Positions 2,682 through 62,300 of a DNA stretch of 64,000 nt are shown here, piece by piece. The notes under the pieces were generated by a model that was not told the DNA's origin, did no database searches, and saw only the letters and a program-made list of their open reading frames with translations. The stretch's first letter is position 1. Each line of letters opens with the position of its first letter. Both the position numbers and the translations under genes were made by a program. The stretch is from Vermamoeba vermiformis (lineage: Eukaryota). The stretch spans positions 248,001-312,000 of the forward strand of contig JBEWZL010000238.1 in assembly GCA_045837725.1 (NCBI GenBank), given 5' to 3'.

Positions 2682-3023
2682 TCTGTAATAAAGCAGCGGC
2701 GCCTTCAGATTAATAAACGCGAGCTCGATCGCGAGATTACTTTGTTGCTCAAGTAGCGCTTATTCTTGATAGTCAATAGGACATTTTTTAATATTGCCCT
2801 TATTTCATTCGGATATCCATTAAATTTAATCGGGTTGCACTGTAACTCATACAGGCCTTGGTCCCAAATCCAGCAGTGGGAGCGGATAATTACGCCTAAT
2901 GGCTGCAATAGGCCTTATAATACAAATATTACATCTTTATATTAAAATCCGTCTTAGTATTTATATTTCGAAATGGTACAATATTTACATTATGTATAAT
3001 TGTCGTCTCCCGTTGAAATTTCT

Positions 3024-3735: not shown

Positions 3736-4329
3736 GGTTAATTAGCAGAGTCTATTGTTGCATATAATTAGTTTGAGTTTGTGTTTTAATGAAGCAAACC
3801 GGTTTTTATCGCGTGCCAATTAGCAAAAAAAATTACCGCGCGAATTGCGAAAAATTACGAAAAATAGCCTAATTTAATTATCTGATCGTGCTAGAATAAT
3901 ATCAATGTTAAGGCGTAAGGAAAATTTAATACTTTGACGTTTTATATTAAATATGATTTGGATTTGTGGCACGGATTAGATTTACCGCTTACATTTCAGT
4001 TTTGATTCGTGTCAGACTGCTGTAATACAATTATATATGGCGCTTGGGAATACTTTCAGACGCACTTCTAATTGTGTTGCTCTATTTAATGAATTGATTG
4101 AATCAATTTCGGTTTGTCACACGAATTAACAATTGAATTGGCAAATCTTGAAATTTCATACCTGCCAGATCCCAGCGGTGCATATTCAGTCTCATAAACT
4201 TAGACTAACCTATCGAGAAGTCCTATCACGTTCAACCGCAAATTTACTTTTTTTGATTTATTTTTTATTTTTCGTACCTAAACCAGGCAAAGGAAGCAGA
4301 TCCAAAAGCATCTCTGAACTACAATCAAG

Positions 4330-5012
4330 ATGGGTGATAGTATGGTCCCTATGCTCAGTGCAATCGGCGCTGGAATTGCAGGTTATTTTGTCGGCCGCAG
4401 ATTAGCGAAGCGTTACGTTTCAGTTTGCTCTCCTGCTAGCGATGTAAGCATAATATTCATATTTAAATAGGACCCATTTATGTATAATTTCTTAAATTTA
4501 TCAATTTTGCAAGCTAATTAAAGAATTTTAATTCGTATAACGGTCGGATTCGCCAAAGACTTCCATTATTCCGATTACTAATGCTAAATTATTACATCAG
4601 AGCGCGATATTAGCCGCGTATTATGCCATGATTGAAATGTTTGGACCATGTAAGTGCAGGATGCACCGAAAAATTATCTTCGATTGTTATTAACGAAGAC
4701 GTCTTTTTCAAAATAATAGATCATATCTATTTTTCATATATTATTTAGTAGATTCTACTATTTTGATTTAGCGCCGATAAAAACAAGGCTGGATTCCAAT
4801 CCACAAAATCTCATTCTCTTTTCAGCCTTTTGCTACGGCCATATCGATAATATTTCCGCGCAATGTTATTAACTTGTATTTCATTAGTCGTTGTGGCTGG
4901 TCTTGGTGCTTACAGCACGCGAGTTCTTGCAAATTACGGATTTGGTTATTTCTCGCTGTATCTTGGCTCGCTCGCTGTGGCTTACAAACTCTTCGAATTA
5001 ATTTCGACTTAA
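4330..5012 (+). CDS. Small hydrophobic membrane protein (3 exons)
   Basis: MGDSMVPMLSAIGAGIAGYFVGRR... | SAILAAYYAMIEMFGP | FVVAGLGAYST...YKLFELIST*; splice phases are consistent. Confidence 0.65.
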
Positions 5013-5145
5013 TAAGTAATACATGTATTAGTAGACTGCACCTGAGTTGTCTCAGTATAAAAGTTGTACTGTATCAATAAAGTTTTTTTTGTTCAAACTC
5101 ATGAGATCGCACACCAGTGATTGACGTTTTAATGATTAAAGCAAA

Positions 5146-8100
5146 ATGAAGTATGTCGTACTCATATTTTGCATATTTTTTGTATTAATAGGGCTGAACT
5201 CTTCGGTCCATGCTCAAGTAAGAGAAAATCTTTTCAGATCAAAACTCAAATCAATTTGTAGACTGATTTTATAATTATAATAATTATCAATACCTTTAAA
5301 ATAGACCGTAATAACAATTCTAAGGGAAATTGGCTCGTTTCCTGCATCAGAAAATTATTAAAAATATTTTCAATATTATCGTTTGCTTTGCAAGGCTCAA
5401 TTGTTAATTATATTAATAGGACTTCTATCCTCATTACCCTTCGCGCGTTATTCACCGTATGAATGGCTTGTGGGACTTCGTTTTCCTCGGTGATGTGCAC
5501 GCAGACTCGATCGATGTTTCATCGATAAAATTCAACGATTCAATGGCTGTACCTGCCTGTTTCGATGCCACTCCTAGTTACGCTGGCAAAAGAGGTACAG
5601 AATAATCATAAGGATGGACATATAATAGCTGAATTTCGCATTTCGGTCGGATCAAACAAAAATTAAATATAGTCCAATATTAGTTTATTATAGTAATATC
5701 TATATAGAGTATTGAAATAAAAATGGCACGAGGGGGCCACGAATAATTTTTACTTTATTAATTTTCTCGTGGAGTTTTTCCCCTGTGACAGATCAATGAT
5801 AGATTTTTTTATGCAGTGCCTTAATGAATTATATTATAGGTTTGGTAGCATATAGAACAAAAGCCAAGATCACACCGAATTCAGCTTCATTACTGTATTT
5901 TGGCTCCGTTTCATTTTGGGCTAAAGTTTTCGTCGACCAAAAGCCGCTTGCCGTGCATTCTCCGAGTACGTCTTAATAATATTAAATGTCCACATATATC
6001 ATATTATTGATATTGAGGCACCGTTTACAGGTTATTATCCGTTTTGGGTGAATGTACCGCCTGCATCTAGCACCGACCGTGATCTGATCGTGTTGGTTGA
6101 TAATCGATTCAATTCTAGTACGAGTGTCTTACAATACCCCAATTTCGACTTTTACCAATACGGAGGCATTAATAGGGATGTTTACGTAAGTACCACAAGC
6201 CGGTACAAAAATTAGTCTAATCGGAAAAACTATCCTTTTTCAATACGTTAGCTAATTTAGTTAACACATGGCAAAAATTTTGTATGTTTTGGTATGGTAT
6301 TCTTATTTTTGTATCAGTGGTACGAAGTTGGATCCAGTTTCATGCAACGCGTTGAAATTTCGACCGATGTTGTTGGCACCGTGTCATTAGCGCTAATCAT
6401 CGGCGGAAATATTAAGAATACGCTTAATATTGTTGTTGAAATTGATACCAACGTTAAAGTAAGTGGCTTAAAGCTCAATTAAGAACGTGACTAAAATCAA
6501 AGATCTAACGTTTAATTAGGGAAAATTCAGTCGAGCACCGAATGATAAGGGCGTTATTAATTTACCAGCAATTTCGATGAATAATCCTTATTTTTGGCGT
6601 CCAAACACACCCCACCTTTATTACATCAAAATTTCGTTATTGGACACCTCCAACAATAGTAAGTCTGATACGTACTTCAAAATCAAATAATTAATAGCAT
6701 TATTATCGCAAATGAACGTAAATTTAATTGTTTTTCTGTAGTTTTGGATGTGCACGTGACGAGATTTGGGTTCCGTAAAATTGAAGCCAACAACGGTGGT
6801 ATTTATTTGAACGGCGAACAAATTCAACTGCACGGAGTTAACAGACACGAAGCACATCCTGAATTCGGTCCTGCATTGCCGTTCTCGTTGTTACTCAGCG
6901 ACATTCAGTTGCTCAAAGTACGTCGTTCGAAACACGCGAAAGTTTCCGAACTAACATTTCCTTATTTAGAATCTCGGTGTAAATTACGTTCGTGGGGCAC
7001 ATTATCCTCAAGATCCGCGTTGGATGGACCTTTGCGATCAGGTACGTGTCTTCAACTGAAATTTCGTTACGCGTGTCAACAATTTTCTCAATTGTTTAAT
7101 ACCACATGTTTTGACATTTTGACATTTATTCACGTTATTTCAAATCTATGACGCATATACTTCCTTCCTCTTAGCAAGATTTTCGTTCAGCTATTGAAAC
7201 GATTTTGAGTTTTCGTGGCTCTAATTTTTGTTTTGCTAATTGTAGTACGGAATTCTTTTGTGGGTCGAAAATATCGCGTGGGGCTATGACACTAAATTAG
7301 TACAAAATCCAATGTTTATGCCGGCACAAGTCGCATCAATGAATGAACTGATTGACGAGTCCTTCAATCATCCGTCCGTCATCATTTACGGATTCTTGAA
7401 CGAATGTAAGTTATCATTATGAATATTTCCACGGCAAAACTACCTTTTGTACGCTTGTAGTCGCAATTTTCCTTTTATGGAAATTGTAACGGATCCAAAC
7501 TCGAACTCCGCTATATTTATGCTTTAACAATTATAAATTATAGTAACATTATTCTATGTTAGGTCCTAGCGACAATCAGGATTGGTCAATAGTCTATTCA
7601 ACGCTGGTTAATGTAATCAAAAGCCGAAATACAGGTCGATTAGTACGCACGAACTTTTTCGTTATTAACGGGATAATAACTATAATTCCTATTTATAGAT
7701 CACGTATGCTTCAAATAGAGGTCAAAATGATATTTACATGGACTTGGTCGACATCGCATCCGTAAGACTTCTGTACGCAAAAGTTATGACGTTATAATTA
7801 ACGTTTTTGTTATGAATAGTTCAACACATATCCTGGTTGGTACGACACTCCAGATATTGGCCTCGATGAACTCTTGAGTCACGTTACTATGGAGCTGGAT
7901 GCGCTCCAACATTGGGCATCGAAAAAACATCCGGGGTAAAGAATCGAAAATGAACGCGAATAATGAGATTAACATATTTCAAATACAGCAAACCTGTTAC
8001 TATAAGCGAGATTGGTGCAGGAGCAATTTACGGCTGGAGGTTTGTACCGTATTTCCTTATTTGGAAAGTTTCTTAATGTATTGTTTGCAGAGATGAATTG

Positions 8101-8382
8101 AACGGATTCTGGACGGAGAGTTATCAATCAGAGTATTTGTCGCTAGCGATGGGCCACGTGATCGATCACCCTCAAAAATTTAGCGGAATTTCCTTGTGGC
8201 AATTCTTCGACATTAGAACGTACTCTGGTGCTCGTGACTTAGGACGTCCTAAAGGCTTTAATAACAAAGGTATATTAATACACCATATCGACGTGAATCT
8301 AATGATTTATTAAGGCTTATTGAACGCGAATAGAAAACCCAAAGAAAGCTATTGGACGATCCAAAAGTTGTTGCGAAAGTAG
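5146..8382 (+). CDS. Secreted glycoside hydrolase family 2, beta-glucuronidase type
   Basis: Signal peptide, then GH2 motifs across exons: DFYQYGGINRDV, RFGFRKI..LNGEQIQLHGVNRHE, RGAHYPQD, NHPSVIIYGFLNE (acid/base), ISEIGAG (nucleophile), GISLWQFFD, and NNKG (glucuronidase N-x-K motif). Confidence 0.9.
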
Positions 8383-8521
8383 CCAAGCAAAGAACTGTGT
8401 AATAAATCTTTGTAATATCATTGCTTTCTTAATATTGCTATACCCTGATTTAGTTAGATCCCGCGGCCAAAAAATTACGCATGAAAATTCTTCAGAATGA
8501 TATTATTCATATTGAAAGAAG

Positions 8522-9096
8522 ATGAGTGACCACGATTTAGACGCTATTAAAGAATACCATTTCCACATTTATTTCGAGCTTAATAATCCTGAATCTCGTG
8601 CTAAAGCAATGAAGATCCGGGAAGGGCTTGAAAATTTGATCGCGAGAAATATTTTGAAAATTAGTTTGTATCATGTAAGGCGATGATAATTACTAACACT
8701 ACTCCTATTAAATATTTTTCTGATTTTTAAAATTATTTAGATTAATGACAAGCCTGTCGGGCCACATCCAATCGGATCTTACGAAGTTTGGGTCCCACGC
8801 GAAGAATTCACATCAGTACTCAGCTGGATCACTACTAATAGAGATAGAGATACACCAGTACTCATTCATCCTCTTACTCGTTACGAAATACTGGATCACA
8901 CCGAGCGCGCAATGTGGATGGGACGAAAATTAACTTTAAATCTCGCTGTGTTATCTCCTGATCTCGGTACATATCGACATTATTATAGCTTATTCTATAT
9001 TGATGCATTAGGCAATATCTGTCGCATACTAACAAAAATTTAGGTTCGCCTCCGTTGCAGAATCCGCACTTCAAGTTGGGCTACTCGAAGGAATAA
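8522..9096 (+). CDS. DOPA 4,5-dioxygenase family protein
   Basis: IKEYHFHIYF, KPVGPHPIGSYEV, VLIHPLTRYEILDHTERAMWMG match the DOPA_dioxygenase family pattern. Confidence 0.9.
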
Positions 9097-9584
9097 GCAT
9101 CGATCGTCATTACTTGTAATATATACCTATGAATCTTTAATAATGATAAATAGCCTTTCAGATAATTATCTGTTGTATTGTTTCGCGTGACGGGATCTCA
9201 AATCGACACAATGACTTTGAACCTATAATTAGACCAGTAATAGCTATTTAAGCGATATCTAATGATAATTATCAATTAGGTCCGCCGAGAAGATGTTGAC
9301 CACGAGGACTGTTTCATTGCACGTGAATATGAAGGCGAGCCTTGGAGTGCTGAACATGGTCCCGCTGATGCCATTTAAATGCATGACAATCACTGTTGTG
9401 GTAATGCTGCATAAGAATTTGCTAAGCAGCGTTATTCCTAGTATTCCTAAGTTGTCAAAATGGATTAATTGGATCTTGCTTGCAACTTTGGTAATGTTTT
9501 TTGGCTGCAAATTTCGCTCGTTGCAACGCCTAAACTTTAAAGTTCTCTATTTAAATAGCAATAATCAAAGTAGTAAAACACAAT

Positions 9585-27085: not shown

Positions 27086-28754
27086 ATGGACGCCACAAAG
27101 AAAACAAAAAAAAGCAAGGACAAGGAGCAGGTAATTTTTAATTTATAGATATTCACATATCTGAAGAAGTTCTATTCCTCCTTGAAGTGTAAAGTGACGC
27201 CAATATTTTAAATTAATTTTTAATTTTAATTTCATTCAGTTGCCGACCCCTTACTCTCAGCGAGATGTTATATCATTGATGGAGGCTGGCAAAGATTTTA
27301 TAATAGATTTGAGGGATTGGGAGATTGAAGGGCAGAAGGGACTAAAATATTTAGCGCGGGCGATCCACCGATCTCTTACTCTCGAGAAAATTAGTCTTGC
27401 TAACATACGAAAAATCTCACCTAGAGACATGGAAAGAATAATAGAAGTATTGAGTGACCACAAAACTATTACCACGCTGAAAATCAGAATGTCGTCTTCG
27501 GATGCAGAATACAAAATCTTGACAAGCGTGTTACAAAAAAATGCTAGAGTCAGGTATTTAGAGCTTGATTGCGCAGAATTATCACTTGAAACTGCAACTC
27601 TACTGTCAGATTCGTTGAAGGTCAACACCAGTCTGGATGAGATCAAATTTATTGCAACAAAGTTGGATGTCCCTAAACTGGCCATATTAGCAGAAGGTCT
27701 AAAAGTACATCCAAAGATACACACGACGCAATATTACTCAGAGACTCTCAATAACGAGTGCAGCAAAATCATCTTTTCAATCATCGAGCAAAATCCAAGG
27801 ATTAAAAGCCTCGAATTATCGGCCTCGCTGAGAGAATTTACCGCTTTAGAAGAGTTTGTCAAAACTAATACTACATTGGAGGCTATTGGATTCTACGAGA
27901 TTAGACCACCGCATCTGGATCCTTTCTTGCAAGCGTTGGCAGTCAACAATGGTCTTAAAGAATTTACTATGCGACATTCACATTGGGATTACTCAACGTG
28001 CAAAATTTTGGCAAATACTCTCAAAACAAATACTACCTTGCAGATCTTGCGTGGCGACTCGAAGTATTTGAACGCTGAACACGTTCGCTTGTTGTCTAAA
28101 GGATTGGCAGCCAATAATACCTTGAAAAAGTTAGATTTCCGAGAAAATAATCTTAACTCGGTCATGGACAAGACGAAGAACCCGAAAGGAAAGCCTACCG
28201 GCACCGGAGCATTTTGCGAAGCGTTGAAAAACAATACGTCCATTACAGACATCGATATATCAAATAACAAGCTATATGAACGTGGGTACGTTGATATCGC
28301 AGCGTTGCTTAAGAACAACAAAGGCATCCGGAAACTACAAATGGATCTGTTCATTGGCCACACGACCATTGACGAGTCTCTCAGGCTCATATGCGAGTCC
28401 TTAAAAGTCAATAAGACTCTAACCTCTTTAAAGCTCTATCAGTGCGTCAAGTTTTCAAATCAGGCTTGGAGTTACATTACGGAGATGTTAGAGGTCAATA
28501 GAGCCTTATCAACGCTCGAAATACCTTACGTAGACATTCCTGAAAATGTGCAGCGAAAATTAAAAAAGAATAAGAGGCGGCGAGAGAAGGGAGTAAGATC
28601 CGCCAAAATGTTGATCAGCATGATAGCGCTGCGGCCAAAAGCTTATAGTGCCGTGCTGCCTATCGAAATTTGGGCGCTTGTACTGAGGTATTACGAAGTT
28701 ACGGGCGTAAACATCAACTTCGAAAAGGAGTTTTTGGCTAAACTAAAAAATTAA
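27086..28754 (+). CDS. RNI-like (NLRC3-type) LRR protein with a C-terminal F-box-like motif
   Basis: Short Lys-rich first exon, then a 1.5-kb exon with repeated L..NTTL..L units, ending in LPIEIWALVLRY. Confidence 0.85.
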
Positions 28755-28839: not shown

Positions 28840-30527
28840 ATGGAGAAAAACAAGACTAAGCACAAAACTTTAGGCGCCAAGCAAAAAGTAAAAAAAGAAA
28901 AGGTACATAAATTGTGATTATGCTGAAAATAATCAAAATATTAATAGTAATTTTTTAAAATTATTAGGCGAAGAAAGTGGGGGTTATTGAAAAAACTGCT
29001 CTTACCACGAGATACGTAAATCAATTCCTTGAAGAAAAAGCCCCTTTCGTCATCGATATGACAGTGGTAGATACGTATCAAATACATGAAATGAATCAAC
29101 TTTTTGCGGATGCGATCAAGGGAAGCAAGACGCTAAAAAGTTTCTTTTTCGTGTATCCTAGAGCAACCATTTCCATAGACGATTGGAACGCAATGACAAA
29201 TGCATTATCCGAAAATCAATCAATTACAGAGCTAGGTTTCAATAATAAAGGGCCCAAAATTGACGCTGAAAAAATGTTAGTGGATGTGCTCACCCGCAAC
29301 AAGAGGATAAAAAAGCTCGGATTTACTTATCACTCCAAGAATACGATGAAATACTTGAAGCACACCGTCGGCAAAGGAAGCTCGATTGAACATCTAGACA
29401 TATTGCAGTGGACTCAAGCTGAATCAACGGATCAGGAAGACTTATTTAATGCGTTGAAGGAAAACACGTCTATAACTACGTTGAGCTTAAAGCAACAAGG
29501 ATTGGGTTATTCAAGCGACCTTCTAAATAGCATTCTGAAAGCATTGGTGTTTAATACAACAGTTCACACTTTCATCGTAGATCTTGGAATAAGCAGCGCT
29601 TCAAACGAGGAGATTTCATTGTTTAAGGAATTGCTGCAAAAAACTAATTCACTAAAGACGATTGATTTGTACGACAGAAGATCAGTAGTGAAGTATTTGC
29701 CGATTATAACAGAAGGTCTGAAAACAAACAAGTCCGTAGCAAAACTGGTTCTCGATATATCGATAGAACAAGAGGATTATGCCTTATTAGGGGACGTTCT
29801 TATGGTTAACAACACATTGACGAGCTTAGACATGAAAAATACGGAGATTTCGTATAGCAGACTTGCAGATTTTGCACGAGGCCTAGCGCACAATTCAGGC
29901 TTAAAATCTTTGAATATTAGAAACAAATATCGTAGAAGAGCAAATGAATCGACAGATGGGTTGGACGCATTGGAGAACGCGTTGTTACAAAACAACACTT
30001 TGACCAAATTGGACATTAGAAACGCACCGGCGAAAGACTTTGAAAAGCTTTTGACGCATAATAACACATTACAAACGTTAAAATTGTGCGTGGATACTCC
30101 GGATATACAGTGGTTACTCAGATCTCTCACGAAAAATCAATCCTTGACAAAACTTGGGATGGTTAAGAGCCCGGGCTTCTCGCAAGATTTCTTCGAATCA
30201 ATGACGAGTTGTTTGGAGTTCAATCATTCATTACTATATTTGGAAGCAACGTCGGTTTGGGATTTGGGAGGCACAATGGCTCAGACTTTTGATCCGGAGG
30301 CTTGGACCAAGATTTTGGACCGAAATAGAGCCAATATGAAAAAAAGAAAATCGGAGATATTACTCGTTCTTCGGACAATTTTAAAACAACCCGGATTCAC
30401 TGAAAGGCTGCCACTGGATCTTTGGGCGAAGATTCTCTCCGAATTAAAGTTTCCTGGCATTACAGCTGATTTAGGACAAGTATTATATTCGTTATCGCAA
30501 CGCCCTAACGCAAAAGTGTTATTTTAG
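28840..30527 (+). CDS. RNI-like LRR protein with a C-terminal F-box-like motif (tandem paralog)
   Basis: Same two-exon layout; NNTLTSLD repeats; LPLDLWAKILSEL near the C-terminus. Confidence 0.85.
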
Positions 30528-31816: not shown

Positions 31817-32041
31817 GAGAAATTGCCAGAATTTTATTCGAAGAGCTACATTCGTTAAATAAATTGAATTTTTTTGTGTCGCATAATATTGATCAATTGT
31901 AATATCAGGATAAGACAAGTAAACCTTGCTTCATAAGGAAATGCGTATAAAGCGGACGTATATTCCAAATTAGGCAAGAAGAAACCGGGTTGATTTGTAC
32001 GAGTTGAGTTTTTTACTATTACTATTAATTACTGCACAATA

Positions 32042-34525
32042 ATGAAGCTATTATTGCTAGGCATAACCCTTTTGCTGGCGCTTAATTTTGGGAGCGCTTA
32101 CGTTCCTGAAGAAGTTTCCATTCTGATCTCAGTAACGCTTCAACGCGCAACTCCGTCGATTGGCCTCGAATGGAATTATACCCCACCAGCAGATGTTACC
32201 TGTTCCACCGAGTGCGTTTTCGATTTGTTCAGATGCGCTGATCCGTTCGATCCGACCCCGGACTGCTGGGGCCAGGCTATTTATACCGTTGATGTTACCC
32301 AAGGGCCAGGAACTTATAGTTATACTGACACTAATGTTCAGGTAAGGCTAAACAAATACTCACTAAGTACTTTACTAAAATTTCAGTTTGATCTCTTTCT
32401 GGAAAATTACTTTTTACGTAAAATCATATTATATGAGAGTACTACATGAACGGATTTCCTTTAGTTTTTTTTTCGGATCAAAGCAAAATTGTAACCAAAT
32501 ATTTGTCCTTAGATTGGTCAGCCTTACGAGTACAAAGTTGTCTTTAGGAATTTAATTCCTTACACTGAAGGCTATGTCGTGGCAGGAATTGATCTGCCAT
32601 TGATCGAAAACAGAGGCCACGTAATTCTTGTGGTAGCTTCGGATGCGGCGACAAACATGACTGAAGAGCTTGACCAGCTTAGAATGGATATGATTGGCGA
32701 CGGATGGGAGATTTCTAACATTTTAGTAGATATAACTGATACTGGTAAGTTTGAACGGAAATCAAAACTCGATCTGCAACTAAAATTTCTCCTTGAAGTG
32801 CCTGATGTCCATAATAAGATTAAAGAAGCCCATAATAATCGCGACATGTCGACCATATTTTTGTTCGGAAATGTTGCTGTACCCTACAGTGGCGATCTCA
32901 ATCCGGATGCTCTTTCATATCACAAAGGCGCTTGGCCTGCTGATGGTACAAGCATACTACTAGTTATACATGTATGCTAATTACATATTTGCAGCATTCT
33001 ACACAACGCTTAATGATAGCGTGTGGACCGATTCTATCGTCAACAACGTTGATGCAACAGATCCGAGAAATCACAACGTCCCTGGTGACGGCAAATACGA
33101 TATTAGCTATCTTAACAGCAACGACTACTCTTACCCGATCGGAGATGTGCGTCCAATCACAATCTCTCATATGGAGGTGAGTAAACCAAGTTTGTTCTGC
33201 TTCGAATTTGTGGGCTGACTTTTTCGTAGCTTGGACGAGTTAATTTGAATCAATTTGACGGATACGACGAAATGGATTTATTAAGGAAGTATTTGAAGAA
33301 GAATCATGGGTACAGACATCGGGAGCCCGAGTACACTTACGCGCAAAAGGCAGTCATTAACGATCTTTGGAAAAACAATGCAGCATTGCAGCCTGAAGCT
33401 ACTGCAGCTGCGGCGTAAGCAAAACATGATCATATATAGTAGTATTTACTTTGTATAACCGATTTTTAGTTGGCGAACTTTTGCAGGGTTAGTCGGCAAA
33501 GACAACATCCGCGAAGCGAATTTATTTGAAGCTCTTGATACGGACACGTAAGTACATATTATTAATATAATGGCATTAATTGGTAATTAAGGGCTGTTCT
33601 TTCTTTCTCTGTTGGTTTCGGATCATACGTTTCTCAGTACGTTGATACCCCGAACATTGTTGTTTACTTCTATTACGACTGGCTGAACAAGACCGTTAAA
33701 TCGCCTTTTCAAATTCAATCTGGTGGCATGTTTCCTGATTGGGATGTGCCGAACAATTACTTGCGCTCTGTTATCGCTGGAAGTCACGCGTTGTCAGTGA
33801 TGACTTCATCTCGTCCTCAAGCGTACTTCCATCATTTGAACTCCGGCACTCATCTTGGAAAATCAGCTCGATTGACGACAACACATGAACAAAAGTATAT
33901 AACGGTAAGATTTCTTGGAGAAGTTCAGCCGTCCAGATCTGACGGAGTTCTATTTTTAGGGTTACTATCCAACCGCAGTGACTCATTCTTTGCACGGAGG
34001 TACGCAAAATGAAAATATTTGCAACGTATTCTCATCCGATTAACTATACTTGTGCAATTAGATCCGACTCTTCGGATGTACGTTGTGGATCCGCCTCGCG
34101 ATGTTGTACGCGATAATTCGGAGAATAGTGGTGTTAAACTATCATGGACTGCATCTTCAGATACAGTGCTTGGCTATCACGTGTACAGATCAACAGCGTC
34201 GCTTGATGGACCGTACACCAGAGTCACAGAAAATATCGTGAGTGAGACCACTTTCACCGACACGTCAGCTGTTCAAGGAAAGAATTACTACATGGTGCGG
34301 GCCGTACAACTAACGCAGACGCCGGCAACTACATTTTACAATCCAAGTCAAGCTGCTTTCTTCGAAACAACGTTCCCATCACCGTCACAAAGTCCATCAT
34401 CACCGTCGAATTCTCCATCAAAACCTCAAACTCCTGGTACGGCAGCCTTGTCATTGGGTTCAACTTTATCGGTACGATTGCTGCTCGTAGTAAGTTCTTT
34501 GATTGTTACTCTGGCAGTCCTTTAG
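32042..34525 (+). CDS. Secreted/GPI-anchored peptidase-C25-like + fibronectin-III protein, copy A
   Basis: Signal peptide; GHVILVV..ELDQLRMDMIGDGW, LFGNVAVPYSG, GAWPAD..Y, LGRV, HSLHGDPTLR; FnIII LSW...VLGYHVYRS...YYMVRAV; Pro/Ser linker and hydrophobic C-terminus. Confidence 0.75.
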
Positions 34526-34892
34526 GAACAAGTCATATTGCATTTTATATTTTATTAGTAAAATTTAAGGTTTTTGCATCGCGTTCCGAATACAGAGAGG
34601 TTTACGCTGACCTTTGGGTTCAATTCAAACCAAACTGATTAACTTATCGTCCGATTTGGAGCAACTACAACTTTTCTGCGTGGATGGATCTATCATACAA
34701 ACTAGAACTAGATTTTGCATTTAAAGAGGTCAACGGGGTATTAATTTTTAAAAATTCGACAGAGAAACCGCGACAGTTGCAGTTCTATTCTTTTCCGGAG
34801 TTGCTATGTTTGGAAGCAGCTCCGCTTTCCGAAGCTCCCGTCCCGCTTTACTCAACAGTTTAACGTAGTGCGACCACGATACTAACACAACG

Positions 34893-37409
34893 ATGAAGTC
34901 ATTATTATTACTGTGCCTACTCTTGCTGACCGAAAGCAATTTTTACGTCAGCGCGGTGTATCCGGAAGAAATATCCATTCAGATTAAAGTAACGCTGCAA
35001 CGCGATGCCCCTGCGATCACCCTCGAATGGAATTACACCCAACCAGCTGATGCTGACACATGCGTTTCTGATTGCGTCTTCGATGTTTTCAGATGCGATG
35101 ATCCGTTTGATCCGACACCGAATTGCTGGGGAAATCCCTTTTGCACTGCTGATCTCATCCAGGGCCCAGGTTCTTATGGTTGTACCGATACTAATGTTCA
35201 GGTAGGTTGACTGATGAACAAATAAAGAGGTGAATTAATTTTTGTAAAGCGGAACAAAATTTCATTTCTAATTTAAAAATATTTACCTCTATTTTTGTTA
35301 TTGAATTAGTATTAATACTTATAGCGCTTGGTCGATAATTTGACCGTTTTCGCTTTCTTCGATCCGAACAACAAACGAATACAAAATTGTACTAAAACAG
35401 TTATCCAGATTGGTCGGCCTTATGAATACAGGGTTAAATCAAGATTTATTGTCAAAGCTTCTTATTCTCCCCCTGATGGCTATGTCGTGGCAGGTATTGA
35501 TCTGCCATTGATCGAAAACAGAGGCCACGTAATTCTTGTGGTAGCTTCGGATGCAGCGACAAACATGACTGAAGAGCTTGATCAGCTTAGAATGGATATG
35601 ATTGGCGACGGATGGGAGGTTTCGAATATTTTAGTCGAACTCAACGATACGGGTAAGTTGCCAACAAAAAATGAAAAATAAATTATAAAATCGATCCGAA
35701 TCTAACTTCAATCTGCAGTGCCCGATATCCGCAGTAAGATTAAAGAAGCTCATAATAATCGCGACATGTCGACCACATTTTTGTTTGGAAATGTGGCTGT
35801 TCCCTACAGTGGCGAACTCAGTCCGGATGGACACACAGACCACATAGGAGCTTGGCCCGCTGATGGTAGAACTATAATCCGTCTTTCAAGGATAAACTAA
35901 TCTTCTATTATTCAGTTTTCTACACTTCATTGAATGATAGCGTGTGGACTGATTCTATCATCAACAACGCAGGTGCAACAGATCCGAGAAATCACAACGT
36001 TCCTGGTGACGGCAAATACGATGTAACCTTTCTAAACAACCTTCAAGTGCCTTTGATAATCGAAGTGCGGCCTATAACTATCGCTCATCTGGAGGTAAAC
36101 CTGGACTTCGAGCAATTTTACAGTCTGACCATTTTCATCAGCTTGGACGAGTTAATTTGAAGCAATTTGACGGATTTGACGAAATGGATCTATTGAGGAA
36201 GTATTTGAAGAAGAATCATGGGTACAGACATCGAGAGCCAGAGTACACTTACGCGCAAAAAGCAGTCGTTAACGATGGTTGGAAAAATGTAGCAATAATG
36301 CAACCCGAAGCTAATGCAGCTACTGCGTAAGTCTGAATGCACAATAAAGTTAATATACATTTAAATAATGGTTATCATTTTTTCAGTTGGCGAACTTTTC
36401 CTGGATTGGTCGGCATCGAAAATATCTACGAAGGAAACTTGTTTGACACTCTTTATAACGATACGCAAGTACTTTCGATATATTTTGCATTATTAATGGT
36501 ATTTTTCAGAGCTATTCTTGCATACGCAGTTGGTTACGGAACATACACCTCCGAGCAGTACGTCGGAAGTACCTCCGATTGGCTGACAAAGACCGTTAAG
36601 GCCCCGTTTCAATTCCACCACGGAAGTTACTTCATTGATTGGGATGTGCCGAACAATTACTTGCGCTCTGTTATCGCTGGAAGTCACGCGTTGTCAGTGA
36701 TGACTTCATCTCGTCCTCGAGCGTACTTCCATCATTTGAACACGGGTACTCACCTTGGAAAATCAGCTCGATTGACGACAACACATGAAGACAAATATCA
36801 TTCGGTGAGATGACAAGAGATTTAAAAGTTTTCTTTGAGATGTGATCTGAGATGCGTTCTTTTTTAGGGCTTGTTTAAAAATTCAGTCACGCATTCTTTA
36901 CACGGAGGTATGTTTATTAATTTTTCAACGATTTTGAACTAATGCGTGGTTTGTCGTGAGCAGATCCGACTCTTCGAATGTACATTGTGGATGCACCTCG
37001 CAACGTCACTCGTGATAATTCTGAGAAAATTGGCCTGAAACTATCATGGAATGCATCTTCAGATACAGTGCTTGGCTATCATGTGTACAGATCAACAGAG
37101 TCGTTTGATGGACCGTACATCAGAGTCACCGAAAATATCGTGAGTGACACCACTTTCACCGACATGCCTGCTGTTTCGGGAAACATGTACTACATGGTAC
37201 GAGCCATACAACTGACGCAGACGCCGGCAACTACATTTTACAATCCAAGTCAAGCTGCTTTCTTCGAAACAACGTACGTTGCACCTCCACAAAGTCCTAT
37301 CCCGCCACCAAACGCTCCTGGTAAACCATCCGTGGCATTCGCTTCAACTTTATCGGCACAATTGTTGCTCTTAGTAAGTTCTTTGGCCGTCACTCTTGTA
37401 GTCCTTTAG
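34893..37409 (+). CDS. Peptidase-C25-like + FnIII surface protein, copy B
   Basis: Paralog of copy A with the same intron positions; one intron needs a GC donor at 36465. Confidence 0.75.
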
Positions 37410-38046
37410 GAATAACAGTCACTCTGTGCGAAACACCTTTCGGAACAACCGTTATGTTGTATTCGAGTGTAAAGTATCTCATTTCACCAAACAGAATAGC
37501 TGCTACAGTAAATTAAATTTACGTATTTACATCACCTTTTGGCATCACATATCTAATGGCCGTTGCTACACATAACGGTTCCGAAATGGTTATTTGAATT
37601 CACGATTGAAGTACCCACAGCCATTAAGACATTGGTGTGGTAGATCGGTCGTTTTTCATCGTCACGTGCTTTCATCGAATTACTCTAAACGTTTAAGAGA
37701 AACTGCGTTTTTACTATGTTTGGAAGCGGCCTCGCTTTCCGAAAATCAAGGCCCGCTTTACTCAACGTTTAATTTAATGCAACCACAAGTAAAGTAATGA
37801 TGAAGTCATTAATATTACTGGGCTTACTCTTGCTGAGCCAAAGCAATTTTTACGTCAGCGCGGTGTTTTCGGAAGAAATATCCATTCAGATCAAAGTAAC
37901 GCTGCAACGCGATACCCCTGCGATCACCCTCGAATGGAATTATACCCACCCAGCTGATGCTAACGCATGTGTTGTAGACTGCGTCTTCGATGTTTTCAGA
38001 TGCGAGGATCCTTTCAATCAGACTCAGAATTGCTGGGGAAATCCCT

Positions 38047-38307
38047 AAAGTTGAATTAGATAAAATGAGATATCTCCCATTCTGAAAACAAAGTTGCTTC
38101 AAAATGATCAACTCACCTCAGGCAGTACCACGCACAAGGTCCGGTCGCCAAACACTCGAAAAAAAATTTTACATCTGTGATCTGAAAAAAAAATTTTACT
38201 GCCTGTGCACCGGACCATGCGGAACAGATTGCCTGAGGTGAGTTGTGCAAAATGAAGTCAAGTTGTTTTTTCAATGAGACGTATCTCATTTTATCTAATT
38301 CAACTTT
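38047..38307. mobile_element. 261-bp MITE, copy 1 (TIR AAAGTTGAATTAGATAAAATGAGA, 4-bp TSD CCCT)
   Basis: Perfect terminal inverted repeats of at least 24 bp; CCCT at 38043-38046 and 38308-38311; absent from the matching site in copy B. Confidence 0.97.
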
Positions 38308-40033
38308 CCCTTTTATACTGTCGATCTCATTCAAGGCCCAGGTTCTTATGGTTGTACCGATACTAATGTTCAGGTATTTGACTTACGAAAAATTAACAAC
38401 GTTAATTAATTTTGTAAAGCGGAACCAAAATTTCATTTCTAATTTAAAAATATTTACCTCCAATTTTTTTTGGTGAATTAGTAATAAAGCCTGTAATACT
38501 CGGTCTATAATTTGACCGCTTTCGCTTTCCTCGATCCGAACAAAATTGTACTAAAATAGTTATCCAGATTGGTCGGCCTTATGAATACAGGGTTAAATCA
38601 AGATTTTTCATTCGTTCTGGTGATAATAATTATCCTCCTCCCGATGGATATGTCGTGGCAGGAATTGATCTGCCATTGATCGAAAACAGAGGCCACGTAA
38701 TTCTTGTGGTAGCTTCGGATGCAGCGACAAACATGACTGAAGAGCTTGATCAGCTTAGAATGGACATGATTGGCGACGGATGGGAGGTTTCGAACATTGT
38801 AGTCGAACTCAACGATACGGGCAAGTTGCCAACAAAAAATACAACTAAAATCGATCCGAATCTAACTTCAGTCTTTAGTCCCCGATGTTCGCGACAAGAT
38901 TAAAGAAGCTCATAATAATCGCGACATGTCGACGATATTTTTGTTTGGAAATGTGGCTGTACCCTACAGTGGCAATCTTAATCCGGATGCACACCAAGAC
39001 CACCTTGGAGCTTGGCCCGCTGATGGTAAAGCTATAAGATGACTTCATAGATAAACTAATCTTCTATTAATCAGCTTTCTACACTTCGCTTAATGATAGC
39101 GTGTGGACTGATGAGCTCATCGACAACGCAGCTGCATCAGATCCGAGAAATCACAACGTTCCTGGTGACGGCAAATACGACGTTAGCAATCTAGGCTTCC
39201 TTCAGATATCTGAAAAAAACATATATATCCCATGGAGGCCTATAACTATTTCTCATTTGGAGGTAAGACGAAACGTCTATCTGGTTTACAGTCTGACGTT
39301 TTTCATCAGCTTGGACGAGTTAATTTGAAGCAATTTGACGGATTTTACGAAGTGGATTTATTAAGAAAGTATTTGAAGAAGAATCATGGGTACAGACATC
39401 GGGATCCCGAGTACACTTACGCGCAAAAAGCAGTCGTTAACGATGGTTGGAGATACGTTGCAGCATTGCAACCCGAAGCTAATGCAGCTCCTGCGTAAGT
39501 CTAAATGCAATATTGAATATAGTAATAATTAATTTGTTTTTCAGTTGGCGCTCTTTTCCTGGATTGGTCGGAATTGAAAATATCTATGAAGGAAACTTGT
39601 TTGAAGCTCTTTATAACGATACGCAAGTACTTTCGATATATGTTGCAGTACTAATGGTATATTTCAGAGCTATTCTTGCTTATGGAGTTGGTTACGGTAC
39701 TTACACCTCCGAGCAGTATGTTGGAAGCACTTACGATTGGCTGACAAAGACCGTTAAATCGCCTTTTCAATTCCATTATGGAAGTTACTTCCCTGATTGG
39801 GATATACCTAACAATTACTTGCGCTCTGTTATCGCTGGAAGTCACGCGTTGTCAGTGATGACTTCATCTCGCCCCCAAGCGTACTTCCATCATTTGAACA
39901 CGGGTACTCATATCGGAAAATCAGCTCGATTGACGACAATACATGAAGGCAAATATTATCCGGTAAGACTCACGCATAACAGAGGTTCAAAAAGTTCGAT
40001 ATCTGAGATATGTTCTTTTTAGGGTTATTATAT

Positions 40034-41599
40034 CCCTTTGATCCCTGCGCACGAAAAAAAATTAATTTCGGGCGAAGATATTGGTATTTCAATTAAATTG
40101 GGCATTTTTTTGCGCATTTATAAGCTATTTACACCTAGCTATAGGGAGGTTTTTGCTGAATTTCTTCGAGTAAAAAAAATAAATAAATTATTACTCGATC
40201 TGGTCTTTAACGCGTCGCTCTGTCTTTTATCTTTGATAATATTGATGAAATAGCATACAATTAACTTTAGCAAGCTTATCACTTGCTGCCCTGTAGTTGC
40301 GGGCGATTCGCTGCCAAAAAAATAGTCTTTTCGCTGGCAAAACCGATTTATTATTCACTCCGCAATCACAGTACCATGAAGCACGACCAAATCATCTACC
40401 AGAATAAGCTGGGGTGACACCAAATCACCTTGGCCGCGTCCACTGGAGATGCTGCGGCCACATTCATGGGAAATTATCGAACTGCAAGTTATATTTGGTT
40501 TGATAATCGGAAAAAAATTGTCTTATATATAGCCATGCATTGTCGATAAAATACTAGCTGAAGAGAAGCAAACAGGTATAAAAATTTCAGATTCGAATTT
40601 TTTAATTTTTAAATATTTTCTGCACGAGCACTGTTACAAATCAATGCTTCTAAACTTACACTTACCTTTATAGATTGCAGTTATTAAATTTAAATCATTA
40701 ATGTGCAAATTCTAACGGCTATATTTTTAGGCGGCAAGTTTTTCGCGCACGATCTGAATACAACAGGTATCGATGCGGTAAAACAATGCACTACGTAATT
40801 TTAAATGACTAATTCAATACGGAAACAGCAACGGTAAGTAATAATTTACGTACCATAGTTGCGGCGAATGCGTGCCAGCAAAATTCAAGTTTTTACAGTT
40901 CCAAGGTGAATTTCATCGCCTATCTAACACTGTGTATTATATTTAGGATTGTTAAAACTATTGGACACTATTAATTATCAATAAACAATGTTAAACAATC
41001 CGGCGTCTAAGGGTGAAACCTTAGCGCCGCTACAACGAGAAAGTTACGCGTTGATTCTCGACGATGTGGGTCAGAGTATGGTCTGGAGGTCGTGTTGCTT
41101 CGGTGACACCACTGGTTCGGAACAGCACTCTCACTGGCACTGAGTTGGATGGGCTAGAAAGTGACTTGTCACTTGCCGTAGCGGACACTCTTTTGTTGTA
41201 CGGTCTCCTTTATGGAGGGGTGTCATCTTGATGCCTGCGACCTTTATCTTGATGAATCGCATGGTTTTGGCCGTGTCAGTCACCTCAACGTGACTTCGAC
41301 ACTTGGATGGGTTAGGGCCCGGCCAAATTCCTCCCTATGAATACTTAGGCTTGCTCAACCAAGTCTTGTATTGCGATTTATCCCTTTTTAATGATAAAAC
41401 AAAGAAATAAGCTTGGGGAAGTGGATCGGATCCGGGGCTGATCTGGATCCACGCAGGGGTGTGGCGCACTGTCAATGGACATCGCCCAACAAAATTGTAC
41501 CATTTTTTGTACTACAGTCTCTTCTGGCGATTAACGGAAATCAAAGGTCCTGAATTTTTGTATAATTTTTATCTAAAAGCATTGGCCGGCCGAAGAGGG
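40034..41599 (+). mobile_element. 1566-bp non-autonomous element with CCCT...AGGG ends and ATAT TSD (piggyBac-like termini)
   Basis: ATAT at 40030-40033 and 41600-41603. Removing the element and one ATAT restores GGT TAT TAT ATG AAT TCA GTA ACG CAT, matching paralogs A and B. Confidence 0.92.
41001..41490 (+). ncRNA. Candidate structured RNA inside the 1566-bp element
   Basis: About ten consecutive hairpins, a C-UUCG-G tetraloop at 41098-41103, G-U pairs that favour the + strand, repeated CTCAAC loops and a repeated TTGGATGGGYTAG motif. Confidence 0.6.
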
Positions 41600-42390
41600 A
41601 TATGAATTCAGTAACGCATTCTTTACATGGAGGTACGTATTTTGATTTTTCAACGACTTGGTACTAACAATTGGTTTGTCGTGAGCAGATCCGACTCTTC
41701 GAATGTACGTTGTGGATGCACCTCGCAACGTCACTCGTGATAATTCTGAGAAAATTGGCCTGAAATTATCATGGAATGCATCATCAGATACAGTGCTTGG
41801 CTATCACGTGTACAGATCCACAGAGTCGTTTGATGGACCGTACATCAGAGTCACCGAAAATATCGTGAGTGACACCACTTTCACCGACATGCCTGCTGTT
41901 TCGGGAAAGATTTACTACATGGTACGAGCCATACAGCTGACAGAGACGCCGGCGACTACATTTTATAACCCAAGTCAAGCTGCTTTCTTCGAAACAACGT
42001 ACGTTGCGCCTCCACAAAGTCCCATACCGAAAACTAAACCAACCGTGGCATTCGCTTCAACTTTATCGGCACAACTGTTGCTCGTAGTAAGCTCTTTGAT
42101 CGTTACTCTTGTAGTCCTTTAGAAACAACCGTATTATTGTATTGTAATAAACATAAATATTCATTGCATTTCCTATTTTAATCGCAAAAGTTAATACGTC
42201 ACAACTTATCGCATGACATATTCATAGCCTGGCTTGGAAAATTCTTTTCTAGAAACAAGTACTATGTTTAAGTAACGCACCAAAAATACAATTTGTTGAA
42301 CGAGTTCGGGTTTTTATTTACAAATGCGTGGTCAAAAGTGTACAAGAACTCCGTTTCGAGCGAAATATAAACGGGTTTTAAAGTCGTTTT

Positions 42391-43609
42391 TTATACGCTG
42401 TGATGAACGCTCTTGTAGCTCTCGATCAAATCTTTGACTTGTGAAACATTTGGGATATTTTCGAAGGCGTACGGGTTAGCGTAAAGATTGCTTCTGATTG
42501 GATGAGCACCTATAATACGAAAATACATTAATATCCATACTATTTAGCGAAATATTAATAGCGGTGCGTACCAGCAAATGTCAAGCTAAATGTCAAAGTG
42601 CCAGATCCGTCTTCTTTTCTCGTCATCGAAATTTGCTGCAAGCCCTCGTAGTCACTCGAATGCACCAATACGGCATTTGATTCGCGAAATTTCGGAGTTA
42701 AAACGATCATGAAAATACGTTTGTTCGTGATGCCGTAGAGTTTGATGTCAGTTTTGAACAAGCGATAACATCCACCGATAAATAGCATAATCCTATTATA
42801 AGAGTAAATAATACTATATATGACATAGAATATGATATTACCATGATGCTACACATGCAACAGCAACCAGCAATGGCCAAGAAATATCGTTATCACAATA
42901 GACTCCAAAAAAGACAAGACTAGCAAGAGCTGCTAAACCAGATGAACCAAATGAATCTGCAGCTCGACGGTCTATATAAAATATTAGTATCATTAATTAT
43001 AAGGTTTTTAGCGTCGCTGATCGGATCTTACTTTGGATCGCAGGTTCGAATGCCCAAGCCAAGACTTCATCCGATTTAATTTCCGATAAAAGATGATTTT
43101 TATGCTCGCTTGATACTGTTATATTATCTGAAGGTGTAGGAGTAGGTGAGGTAATCAAAGGACGTCTACAAAAAGCAGATCAGCGATGGTCGTACCGTAG
43201 AAATAATTTGCGCGGCGATTTATTTTTGTAAATTTATCATAATTTAGTATTATAATTATCGATATGTCGCATAATAAAGTAGAAGAAATGTGCACAAAGC
43301 AATTTTTCAAACTTACGTTTCTGAATCGTATTTGGGCTTTCTTTTCTTGAAGCAGGCTAGTACCGTCATAAATATAGATAATAATAGCAACGTTCCACAG
43401 AAGATTACTGCGGGAATGAAAAAAAAACGTTAGATCGGTGCATTTAAAGCAGGCCTATCTCTTTAAATATATTCCTATGAGTATATATAATACTTACTTC
43501 CTCCGATTAAGGTTTCGCGGGGAACTGATGATCCGTAAGCCGGATTTGTTCTAGCAGATACGAATCCGATCCCCAGCAATAGGCAGAGTAATTGCGGTAT
43601 ATGCTTCAT
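42391..43609 (-). CDS. Multi-pass membrane protein with a C-terminal bacterial-PH-like domain
   Basis: Signal peptide MKHIPQLLCLLLGIGFVSA, TM segments, then LYGITNKRIF...DGSGTLTF...FENIPNVSQVKDLI. Confidence 0.65.
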
Positions 43610-59573: not shown

Positions 59574-62300
59574 TTATTTCAATGAGTTGATAAACTCTTC
59601 CGCTTGTTGAACACCCAAGTCAATAGGCAACCACTTGTCATCGACCAACTCTTCTTTGTAGAGCAGTCCTTTGCCGTAGAACTTGATCATCGAATCCGAC
59701 ACAGATCTGATGTTCAAATCAAAATTGGTTAGTAGCAAAGCAAGTCTAGCTTATAATCACTCACCTCATGTCAATATCGCAACGCTTCCACTTCCCTTCA
59801 AGAGCGCACTTGACAATACGGTTCACGATAATGCTGTTGTCACGCAAAGCCTTGTACGGGAAGTACACAAACATTATTCTAGTCCAAATATTAGCATAGT
59901 AATAAACCATACAATGCGAATATCGTGTTAAATAGTAACAAAAGAAGATGGGATAGATTTTCAAAAAAGTGAATTTACATTGATTTTTTACCTCTCATGT
60001 TCAGACGAATGAACCTCAGCTGTAAAAGGTATTGGACCACTATCGCTATCAATTGAGCTCGCTACTTGGGAGGGTCTCCATACATCACTATAAGCTAAGC
60101 CACTAGCCGTCTCGTTAAGCGTTCCTTGCCTCGTTGAAATGGTGTCGTTCGGATTAATGACAGCAACTTTTACAGGTCGATTCTGACGTGGATCCGGTGC
60201 TTCAAAATCGACTACGCGGATAGTATCATACCCTGAGACAATGAACTTGCCATTATCGAACTTAAAAATCAAGCGTTAATAGATTTGATCTGATCCGTTA
60301 CAAAAAAAGTAAGGATCCGGATCACCAAAAAAAACTGTTACGAAAAACTTACTCCGGATAGATTAACATATTTAAAAACACCTTGTGCTATTAGTGTCGT
60401 TAAATGCTTGCCAGAATTGATGTCGACGATGTGTATCAACCGACCAAGGTTGCATAATAACAAGTTCTTGTGAACGTAAATATTTCGGCTGTAGTGTGCT
60501 GCTTCCATATTCGTTTTGAAATTTCCTTCTTTGAGAATGTTTCCGCTAAGGTCAATAATTGACCAGATTGTCTGATCTGAATCGATATCAGCCAACATTA
60601 TCTAAAATTTAATAATTAGCGTCAGATCAAGCTTACTTTGAAAATTGTAAACGTTTGAATATTATAATAATACTCTAGCGCATCCGCGATTACTAATTTT
60701 GGATTGATTTTGTCATTTCATTTTACCTTGTTATCGTTCAGGTAAAATTCTGTGAATAGAGGTATCTCTTTCTTCAAAACTTCGTCATTCGATTCGACAT
60801 CGACGGCTCGTAATATATGAATTGTTCCGCTTTCTTTGTACGCAATGATCTTTCCGTGCAGTTGAAAATCATAAACATTTTCTCCTAAAACTGAATCTGG
60901 CCTTTTAATTTCTTTGTACTGGCCAGTAGTCAAGTCAATGAGGTAGAAGTGATCGCGACTATATAAATATTAGTTATATAATTAAACCGCTTGCTGCTAC
61001 CTTACCCGTTAACTAAGATTGTTTCGTACGCAGGATCAGAATTGGATCTCCATTCACCGTCAGACACTCGAGCAACTAGCTCAATTACTTAGTACAAGTA
61101 TTAATCTAGTAACGTTTTTAACTGACCTTCAGGAAGAGTAAGCTCTTTAACATCGCCGGCATCGGATCTTCTTTGGATCTTCAAAGTACCTTTACCTTCA
61201 CCAAACTATGCCTTGGATTAGAGCATGTATTATATTTAAATATTCTTTGCAGCTACGTACCACAAAATAGGATGGTGTAATCATACTTAACCCTACTCTA
61301 CTACGACTTTTAATTTTTTGACGGGTTCCTGTTCTGGCATTAAAAAGCTCAATTCCATTCCGCTCCGAGGACGGAATATTAGCTCTAAATGGACGGTTAT
61401 TAACTATAGATATTTAATACGATATTTACCCTCGGCAGTCGTCAAACCAATTGATGAGCACATCAGATCCGGAGACGGTGATATCGGCGATTGTCATCGG
61501 AGGCGCGTAAATAGCTTGAGTTGAAAATCTAGCGATAAATTAGTCATTTTTAAAGTTGAATTAGATAAAATGAGATATCTCCCATTCTGAAAACAAAGTT
61601 GCTTCAAAATGATCAACTCACCTCAGGCAGTACCACGCACAAGGTCCGGTCGCCAAACACTCGAAAAAAAATTTTACATCTGTGATCTGAAAAAAAAATT
61701 TTACTGCCTGTGCACCGGACCATGCGGAACAGATTGCCTGAGGTGAGTTGTGCAAAATGAAGTCAAGTTGTTTTTTCAATGAGACGTATCTCATTTTATC
61801 TAATTCAACTTTTTTTACTAAGTTTTAATCACGTACCTTCCCTTTTCAATGTTTTGAAGCAACATGTCATTCAGATCTGCGTTTGTAAGTTAATCAAATC
61901 GTACCAACTATCTCGTGTACCTTTGTCGAGATGCAAAATAGTCTGTTGGTCATTCCGAGGCAGCTCAGTTCGGTCGAGATTGAGCTTATCCGGACGGGAT
62001 GTGAAGTTCCTTACAAACCTACGAGGTTCTTTAACTTTATTTTTGGGTTTGGTGAACAATCCATAAGAACCCTTTGGCATGGCAATCTGCATGAAAAGAA
62101 TAGTTAGCAAATTATTTTTTCTTTTTATTTAATAATGGGCATCCATCTGTCGTGAATTTACACATGATGCTACTCAGTAACACATTATTAATATTTTCTG
62201 GAATATTATTATGCGCACAAGATTCCTCTCAGCGTACCTTCAGGATCGAAGAGCGCATCGCGCTCTTTGCCAAAGTAGCAAGTGCCTTCCTCGTTGACAT
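59574..62300 (-). CDS. Hypothetical multi-exon protein, possible mitochondrial presequence and beta-propeller-like body
   Basis: Starts MSTRKALATLAKSAMRSSILK; the first exons join in phase; beta-rich segments such as IHIVDINSGKHLTTL; ends ...EEFINSLK*. Confidence 0.6.
61552..61812. mobile_element. 261-bp MITE, copy 2 (4-bp TSD TTTT), intronic
   Basis: Identical by eye to 38047-38307; TTTT at 61548-61551 and 61813-61816; lies in an intron of the minus-strand gene. Confidence 0.97.

Follow-up and report, generated by a model that had tools for sequence, protein, structure and literature searches.

A 64-kb stretch of the Vermamoeba vermiformis genome (64,000 nt; contig JBEWZL010000238.1 of assembly GCA_045837725.1, positions 248,001 to 312,000 of the forward strand; hereafter the window) contains three tandem paralogs for a secreted protein, the third of which is interrupted by a 1566-bp segment at window positions 40034–41599. 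The locus raises the question of what this segment is, how it came to lie within a gene and whether it carries a functional RNA. A first-pass annotation, made from the sequence alone, had described it as a mobile non-autonomous element that kept an RNA cargo while losing its protein. The segment is probably a non-autonomous cut-and-paste DNA transposon of young age and belongs to a small family with several copies; the best-kept part of that family is a non-coding block of about 600 nt at its right end, for which a role as RNA cargo is unlikely.

Insertion into a coding mini-exon

Comparison of the flanks of the insert with the window by BLASTN gave two paralog matches (32992–34547 and 35885–37419, 75–90% identity), and the alignment to these paralogs breaks off on the left at 39968 and restarts on the right at 41605. 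What the insert divides is a coding mini-exon of 40 nt with a short intron on each side (40023–40033 plus 41604–41632, GYYMNSVTHSLHG), and the same mini-exon is 40 nt long in both intact paralogs. It reads GGTTACTATCC...CACGGAG in paralog 1 and GGCTTGTTTAA...CACGGAG in paralog 2, while paralog 3 has GGTTATTATAT, then the 1566 bp, then ATATGAATTC...CATGGAG. On the plus strand, the 5' part of the mini-exon (40023–40033) ends in the left copy of ATAT (40030–40033), the protein-less element runs from its tip CCCT (40034–40037) to its tip AGGG (41596–41599), the right ATAT copy of the target-site duplication follows (41600–41603), and the 3' part of the mini-exon (41604–41632) leads into a donor GTACGT at 41633. 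Removal of the insert and one ATAT returns the third mini-exon to 40 nt and to frame, and therefore both the boundaries at 40034 and 41599 and the ATAT duplication, which the first-pass annotation had deduced from the empty site in two paralogs, are right. The net gain of the exon is 1570 bases (1566 bp and one extra ATAT), by which the reading frame is broken; that the target was a coding exon is a point absent from the annotation. An introner, that is, an element spliced out of the host exon, was considered and rejected, as there is no GT..AG at the borders and use of the nearest internal sites would add 74 nt and break the frame.

The two ends resemble each other very little. The left end (CCCTTTGATC) and the reverse-complemented right end (CCCTCTTCGG) are alike over 4 nt, CCCT/AGGG, or at 7 of 8 positions with one gap, and a repeat search of the element reported no terminal inverted repeat (TIR), in agreement with the earlier description of ends that match over about 4–6 nt without a long TIR. 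Read together with the duplication, the junctions are ATATCCCT...AGGGATAT, a perfect 8-nt inverted repeat, which fits an enzyme acting symmetrically on both ends. Under the mechanism proposed here, a transposase from a longer relative elsewhere in the genome would recognise both ends by the tips CCCT...AGGG, and the element would be excised and then pasted into ATAT through a 4-nt staggered cut, repair of which would duplicate the ATAT. Landing in the 40-nt coding exon of the third tandem paralog, it would have broken the frame by the bases added.

Further copies and the kind of transposon

No second copy of the element and no end-like word was found elsewhere in the 64-kb window. Parts of the stretch are contained in public reads (20 rows from 13 studies; in 16 of the rows, X5–X20, the shares are small, and none of the indexed runs with parts of the stretch is listed as RNA), and the results given here come from four runs, X1, X5, X7 and X21. 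Run X1 is a DNA run with the same organism label and is possibly the source sample of the window assembly. Its single-copy flank contigs, one of which bridges the left junction, have k-mer depths of 362.7, 380.8 and 359.2, and the values for those contigs that match the element without a mismatch are 1648, 1788, 1799 and 1861, about 4.5–5 times those of the flanks. The element body would thus be present about 4.5–5 times and be identical among the copies, a summed depth by itself not being a copy number.

Other flanks join the same two ends. Three further left flanks were found in X1, with loose ends before 40024, 40028 and 40030 and with ATAT before CCCT in each, and one further right flank was found in a contig of run X7, which reads AGGG-ATAT-G and is then divergent. 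With the locus itself included, every junction seen in these two runs, four on the left and two on the right, has the full ATAT. Copies with the same ends, whose absence the first-pass annotation had named as telling against it, are therefore seen in the reads, and its expectation of ATAT at further insertion sites is confirmed at three other left junctions and one other right junction. The marks of a non-autonomous cut-and-paste element in general (identical ends at several sites, a target duplication and no transposase gene) were all found; mobility without autonomy, as annotated, thus holds on the evidence of the other ATAT junctions, of a depth above that of the flanks and of the lack of coding capacity described below.

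The insertion appears to be recent, since the duplication is perfect, the body contigs are without variants among copies and the exon frames of paralog 3 are open. With this element and a second, unrelated insertion (described in the last section) removed in silico, the open exon frames of paralog 3 and paralog 2 measure 123/113, 130/118, 179/158 and 145/149 amino acids, respectively.

Some members of the family share the terminal parts only. Contigs with variant junctions have loose ends behind 40063 and before 40998. Summed depth is 4262–5033 in the two bins covering 39996–40143, is 1648 from 40144 on, and reaches the highest values of the element, 2468–9446, in the bins covering 41032–41623. 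The loose ends and the raised depth at both ends show that some members have just the left tip region and the right 600 nt in common. Two plus-strand modules were delimited in this way: a left terminal module common to other family members (40034–40143; the variants depart from it behind 40063, and from about 40143 on summed depth is lower), and a right module of about 600 nt (40998–41599; loose end before 40998, highest summed depth) common to variant copies with another left neighbour.

The element is without coding capacity. It contains 37 stop-to-stop open reading frames (ORFs) of at least 30 amino acids, the longest of 76, and in a Pfam scan none of the 37 reached the cut-off (best match E 0.031, 14.9 bits against a cut-off of 27). 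No remnant of RuvC, of another nuclease or of a recombinase was found by Pfam among these ORFs of the one copy, so that the earlier statement that no transposase or nuclease can be read in the element stands. ARAGORN found no tRNA in the element, and nothing in the whole window reached the gathering level of Rfam; a sub-threshold match to a group II intron domain on the minus strand (40180–40376, E 0.3) was dismissed as chance. In protein searches, a 52-amino-acid plus-strand ORF crossing the 40998 junction gave three weak matches (E 1.5e-5 to 2.7e-4), two of which align in five stretches each, and no near-identical protein, and a 67-amino-acid minus-strand ORF of the right module led to no longer protein.

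Taken together, a precise duplication of 4 bp that consists of one fixed, palindromic word of A and T only, the inverted tips and the protein-less copies, presumably mobilised in trans, argue for a cut-and-paste DNA transposon. Several points weigh against this assignment. The inverted termini, at only 4 nt, are far below the 12–21 bp reported for piggyBac and Sola2. The copy estimate consists of k-mer depths of one run, X1, which may be the window's own source sample. No empty-site allele was seen in the runs; the only contig that skips the insert (39968>41605) has 14 mismatches and represents paralog 2, not an empty allele. No autonomous partner or relative and no transposase came from metagenome, viral or prokaryote contigs, plasmids or phages: an exact scan of the contigs with the right-end 24-nt word and a 24-nt word of the most abundant block gave 0 hits, and BLASTN in distant mode found no match among plasmids and phages. 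Lastly, a 2-bp TA duplication with tips TCCCT...AGGGA fits the single locus equally well.

The last of these points corresponds to a transposon of Tc1/mariner/pogo type, for which the further flanking A and T would be due to chance or to target preference. ATAT is a tandem AT repeat, so the empty site GGTTATTATATGAATTC is recovered as well by a duplication of TA as by one of ATAT. The other junctions speak against it, however, as A stands before TAT at 4 of 4 left junctions and T after ATA at 2 of 2 right junctions, which is unexpected if these positions were free, and a TIR of 5 nt would be far shorter than the 33-bp TIRs given for the TA-flanked SPu-1 in the description of that element (PMC3627910). 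A transposon of this type is therefore very unlikely.

A site-specific recombinase, of the tyrosine or serine kind, acting through a circular intermediate would make ATAT a crossover core and not a duplication left by repair. This would account for an ATAT that is invariant at every junction seen and for inverted repeats that are nearly absent, and the account of MCi-2 in PMC3627910 describes an element with Fanzor1, a partial Crypton transposase and flanking duplications, the class of which is left open there. The exact inverted 4-mer CCCT/AGGG beside ATAT, however, produces an 8-nt palindromic end structure that is typical of DDE transposons, and the ORFs of the element hold no recombinase remnant; this origin, too, has little probability.

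It is extremely improbable that the segment is not a transposon but DNA captured once at a break, a retro-element or a solo long terminal repeat. The missing TIR and ORF would suit such an origin, as would the poly(A) signal and spliced transcript inside the segment, but the same two ends are found joined exactly to several other flanks, the element exceeds its flanks several-fold in depth, and there are no TG..CA ends and no poly(A) tail, tRNA-like or primer-binding features.

For the preferred cut-and-paste transposon, the tips and the 4-bp palindromic target would be most like those of piggyBac with ATAT replacing TTAA, in keeping with the resemblance to piggyBac noted in the first-pass annotation, and Sola2, with its AWWT target, which the annotation had not considered, would be the main alternative. 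The target of piggyBac is normally TTAA, its TIRs are about 12–19 bp long and its transposase is of the DDD type (Pfam DDE_Tnp_1_7). Like Trichoplusia ni piggyBac and the piggyBac-like CsuPLE1, the element has a 4-bp palindromic, AT-only duplicated target, and the CCC...GGG tips of piggyBac are matched by its CCCT...AGGG. It differs in what appears to be a regular use of ATAT in place of TTAA, at this locus and at the other left and right junctions, in ends that have 4 nt (or, if one gap is allowed, 7 of 8) in common in place of a TIR of the usual length, and in that no ORF of the copy matches the DDD transposase. ATAT is on record as a piggyBac target, at 2 of the 21 CsuPLE1 sites given in PMC4273485, where the start of CsuPLE1 is CCCAGATTAGCCT, and in one Macrostomum transgenic line (passage on that line in PMC8717057). 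Among the papers listed by a literature search for an ATAT-targeting piggyBac branch there were such minority sites only and no such branch.

Sola2 elements of dictyostelids are described with 4-bp AWWT duplications, including ATAT, and with TIRs of 12–21 bp (Bao and Jurka 2013, PMC3627910), so the ATAT of the element falls within the AWWT range and its target fits Sola2 as well as piggyBac. The Sola2-Fanzor1 chimeras DFa-1/2/3 and PPa-1/4/5 have, according to the same description, one shared half and one variable half, the latter carrying Fanzor1, and transposase-less derivatives exist; the family of the present element is likewise modular. It differs from Sola2, compared by that description and not by end sequence, in lacking the 12–21-bp TIRs and any transposase or Fanzor1 gene, and its shared part is a non-coding 600-nt block, whereas that of the chimeras is described as the transposase-side 5' region. 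The ends and target would favour a piggyBac-like transposase, with a Sola2-like one next.

In a comparison over 39700–41900, pieces of the element are also present at 99–100% identity in X5 and X7, two runs filed under two other organism codes. By listing alone, small shares of the words of the stretch occur as well in metagenome runs of freshwater, wastewater, biofilm and canine origin. These occurrences may reflect the same organism, contamination or a spread of the element.

Internal transcript, right module and the question of an RNA cargo

The left two thirds of the element contain a spliced transcription unit on the plus strand. A 324-nt contig of X7, a run filed under another organism code and of a read type guessed to be RNA, matches the element with 0 mismatches and joins 40365–40575 to 40731–40833 across a 155-nt GT..AG intron (contig joint 40573>40729, cut +2; the shorter side has 106 letters). 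Exon 1 thus extends at least over 40365–40575, intron 1 over 40576–40730 and exon 2 over 40731–40833. The nine trailing letters of the contig occur in the element only at 40948, which implies a second GT..AG intron of 113 nt at 40834–40946, more weakly supported by these nine letters, and a start of exon 3 at 40947. The part of exon 3 up to 40985 includes the AATAAA at 40980–40985 and lies within a hairpin, the arms of which (40946–40956 and 40991–41001) are complementary at 10 of 11 positions. Of the splice signals proposed in the first-pass annotation, the pair 40576/40730 is therefore confirmed and the pair 40834/40946 is retained less firmly, while donor 40906 and acceptor 40828 received no support; the AATAAA is where it had been placed.

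No frame of the spliced product exceeds about 37 codons, and the internal transcript is either a relic that no longer codes or a non-coding RNA. Unspliced pieces of the element, with one mismatch each, are contained in run X5, and the RNA run X21, which has the same species label, gave 0 reads on the entire stretch, host exons included, and is therefore uninformative for the element. The unit may be best understood as a decayed transcription unit that is still transcribed and spliced, with its two introns and AATAAA, and most likely as what is left of a cargo or transposase gene. For the right 600 nt, the most likely role would be that of a cis-acting end region needed by the transposase, and they could possibly also be made as RNA.

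The first-pass annotation had described a folded GC-rich block of about 490 nt to the right of this unit. The base composition is as stated, with 50% GC in 40990–41480 and 35% in the left part, while folding proved to be local. The 610 nt of 40990–41599 are predicted to fold with -202.5 kcal/mol on the plus strand (z -2.97, 20 shuffles) and with -166.5 kcal/mol on the minus strand (z -2.30), the plus strand being better by 36 kcal/mol. In 150-nt windows sliding over 39300–42499, the excess is concentrated at 40900–41049 (z -4.2), which is the hairpin around AATAAA, at 41000–41149 (z -2.9) and at 41250–41399 (z -5.0). The last of these windows contains a predicted multi-branched plus-strand fold of 135 nt (41251–41385), closed by an 11-bp stem of 41251–41261 with 41372–41382, with -52.2 kcal/mol (z -5.56), an energy that none of 200 shuffles equalled, and a minimum free energy (MFE) structure that makes up 23% of the ensemble. 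Its pairs are Watson–Crick in 43 of 46 cases, and the domain would therefore fold on either strand or as DNA. Its 11-bp inverted arms could also be those of a nested miniature inverted-repeat transposable element (MITE), but no clear duplication adjoins them. Neither the last 150 nt (41450–41599, z +0.63) nor the 156 nt of 41085–41240 (z -0.19) fold better than shuffles, and the hairpin cluster annotated at about 40270–40470 is marginal (z -2.3; 2 of 200 shuffles fold as well).

Sequence variation in the block offers a lead on whether the predicted structure is maintained. A second allele is present in X1 contigs at six sites of the block (41036, 41051, 41099, 41104, 41225 and 41226), all of them transitions; the count covers these listed sites, three further variants of one contig being outside the list. 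Positions 41104 (U>C) and 41225 (A>G) are partners in a predicted long-range plus-strand helix within 41103–41226 (41103–41110 with 41219–41226; pair probabilities 0.99 and 0.89). At their pair (probability 0.99) U-A would become C-G, and at 41226 (U>C) G-U would become G-C. As to the remaining sites, 41036 (C>U) would stay paired as a wobble whichever of two local hairpins forms, the variant at 41099 lies within a cUUCGg loop, and 41051 (U>C) is in a loop under one fold and breaks a pair under the MFE fold. The odds that two of six variant sites would be partners by chance were estimated at about 0.015, on the basis of about 190 pairs in a total of about 186,000 pairs of positions and of 15 pairs of sites. 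The variants at 41104 and 41225 are on separate short contigs, with depths of 1461 and 2540, and are compensatory only if linked; covariation at this pair may thus serve as a lead.

These results bear on the proposal that the right module is an RNA of omegaRNA/reRNA type, or another functional RNA, serving a Fanzor/TnpB-like or other protein of relatives, the present copy being a protein-less hitchhiker that would have kept the RNA. Such a cargo would fit the right 600 nt as the shared module with the highest depth, the plus strand as the better-folding one, and the domain at 41251–41385 with its one dominant predicted structure. The partnered variants at 41104 and 41225, if linked, and the change from G-U to G-C at 41226 would be in keeping with it as well. 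A terminal stem CUCUUC/GAAGAG predicted at the very end recalls the stems of Fanzor reRNAs, which include TIR and TSD (target-site duplication) according to the account in bioRxiv 10.1101/2023.08.09.552727, and Sola2 elements with ATAT duplications are described as carrying Fanzor1 (PMC3627910).

Against an RNA cargo stand the lack of any RuvC or other nuclease remnant in the element copy, of any longer protein sharing the 52- or 67-amino-acid ORF of the right module in the protein searches, and of a match in Rfam. The last 150 nt, where a scaffold would be expected, do not surpass shuffles in folding, and the folded domain, 215 nt away from the end, is not beside a would-be guide. The helix with the variant pair is in the stretch of z -0.19 and its two variants are on separate contigs, the domain is so largely Watson–Crick that either strand, or the DNA itself, would adopt the fold, and 40958–41475 is covered by no X7 contig. 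The element is like the omegaRNA-only derivatives of TnpB/Fanzor transposons in its protein-less build and in a best-kept, partly structured, non-coding end block, and unlike them in that no nuclease-bearing relative and no Rfam match were found and the fold does not abut the end. The mobile and protein-less parts of the annotation's proposal therefore stand, while a cargo of omegaRNA type has so far gained no support, nor is it refuted; such a role for the right module appears unlikely. It is equally doubtful that the best-kept and most abundant part of the family is a 600-nt structured RNA module held by compensatory change in transposons that enter ATAT sites and have hardly any inverted repeats, in which case this copy would, without a protein of its own, carry a guide or regulatory RNA for a nuclease or transposase supplied by relatives.

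Neighbouring genes and implications

The three tandem paralogs lie at about 31994–34547, 34801–37419 and 37711–42146, the third carrying the insert, and each encodes a secreted FN3-domain protein with a Ser/Pro-rich hydrophobic tail; DNA identity among the copies is 75–90%. Introns of the host are 55–70 nt long with a yeast-like branch-point word, TACTAAC or ACTAAT, as in the intron at 41633–41688 and the paralog intron at 36910–36960. Genes of the window have short GT..AG introns, and among their products are a DNA polymerase of family B, a phosphatase resembling synaptojanin and leucine-rich repeat (LRR) proteins. The conserved phosphatase domain in the window matches named proteins at 36–43% identity only. 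Two neighbouring intron-less ORFs (27198–28754 and 28968–30527) encode RNI-type LRR proteins of 518 and 519 amino acids; in a search with the first of the pair alone, the closest protein in the database had no more than 51% identity.

A second, unrelated element is present in the window, a 261-bp MITE with perfect inverted repeats of about 26 bp (AAAGTTGAATTAG...) at 38047–38307 and 61552–61812. The two copies are 100% identical and are flanked by 4-bp duplications, CCCT and TTTT. The copy at 38047–38307 lies inside the first coding exon of paralog 3, and the corresponding site of paralog 2, at about 35139, is empty. Since the 1566-bp element is also in an exon, paralog 3 has been struck twice in exons by young transposons.

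If the transposase that moves the element were piggyBac-like, the known target range would be extended for a superfamily that serves widely as a genetic tool. Should the right module be a functional RNA, an RNA cargo would be tied to a new class of eukaryotic transposons, and omegaRNA-only derivatives would have in this family a counterpart from eukaryotic cells, in an undescribed ATAT-targeting branch of piggyBac or Sola2. Neither consequence follows from the present data. The family of the element is uncatalogued, has ATAT as its target and ends in inverted tips of minimal length; the element is of an ordinary kind with some unusual details. It offers a lead to a cut-and-paste lineage that would use ATAT instead of TTAA and manage with inverted tips of 4 nt, and the locus provides a clean case of very recent transposon activity, in which one gene copy of a tandem family was struck twice in its coding exons.

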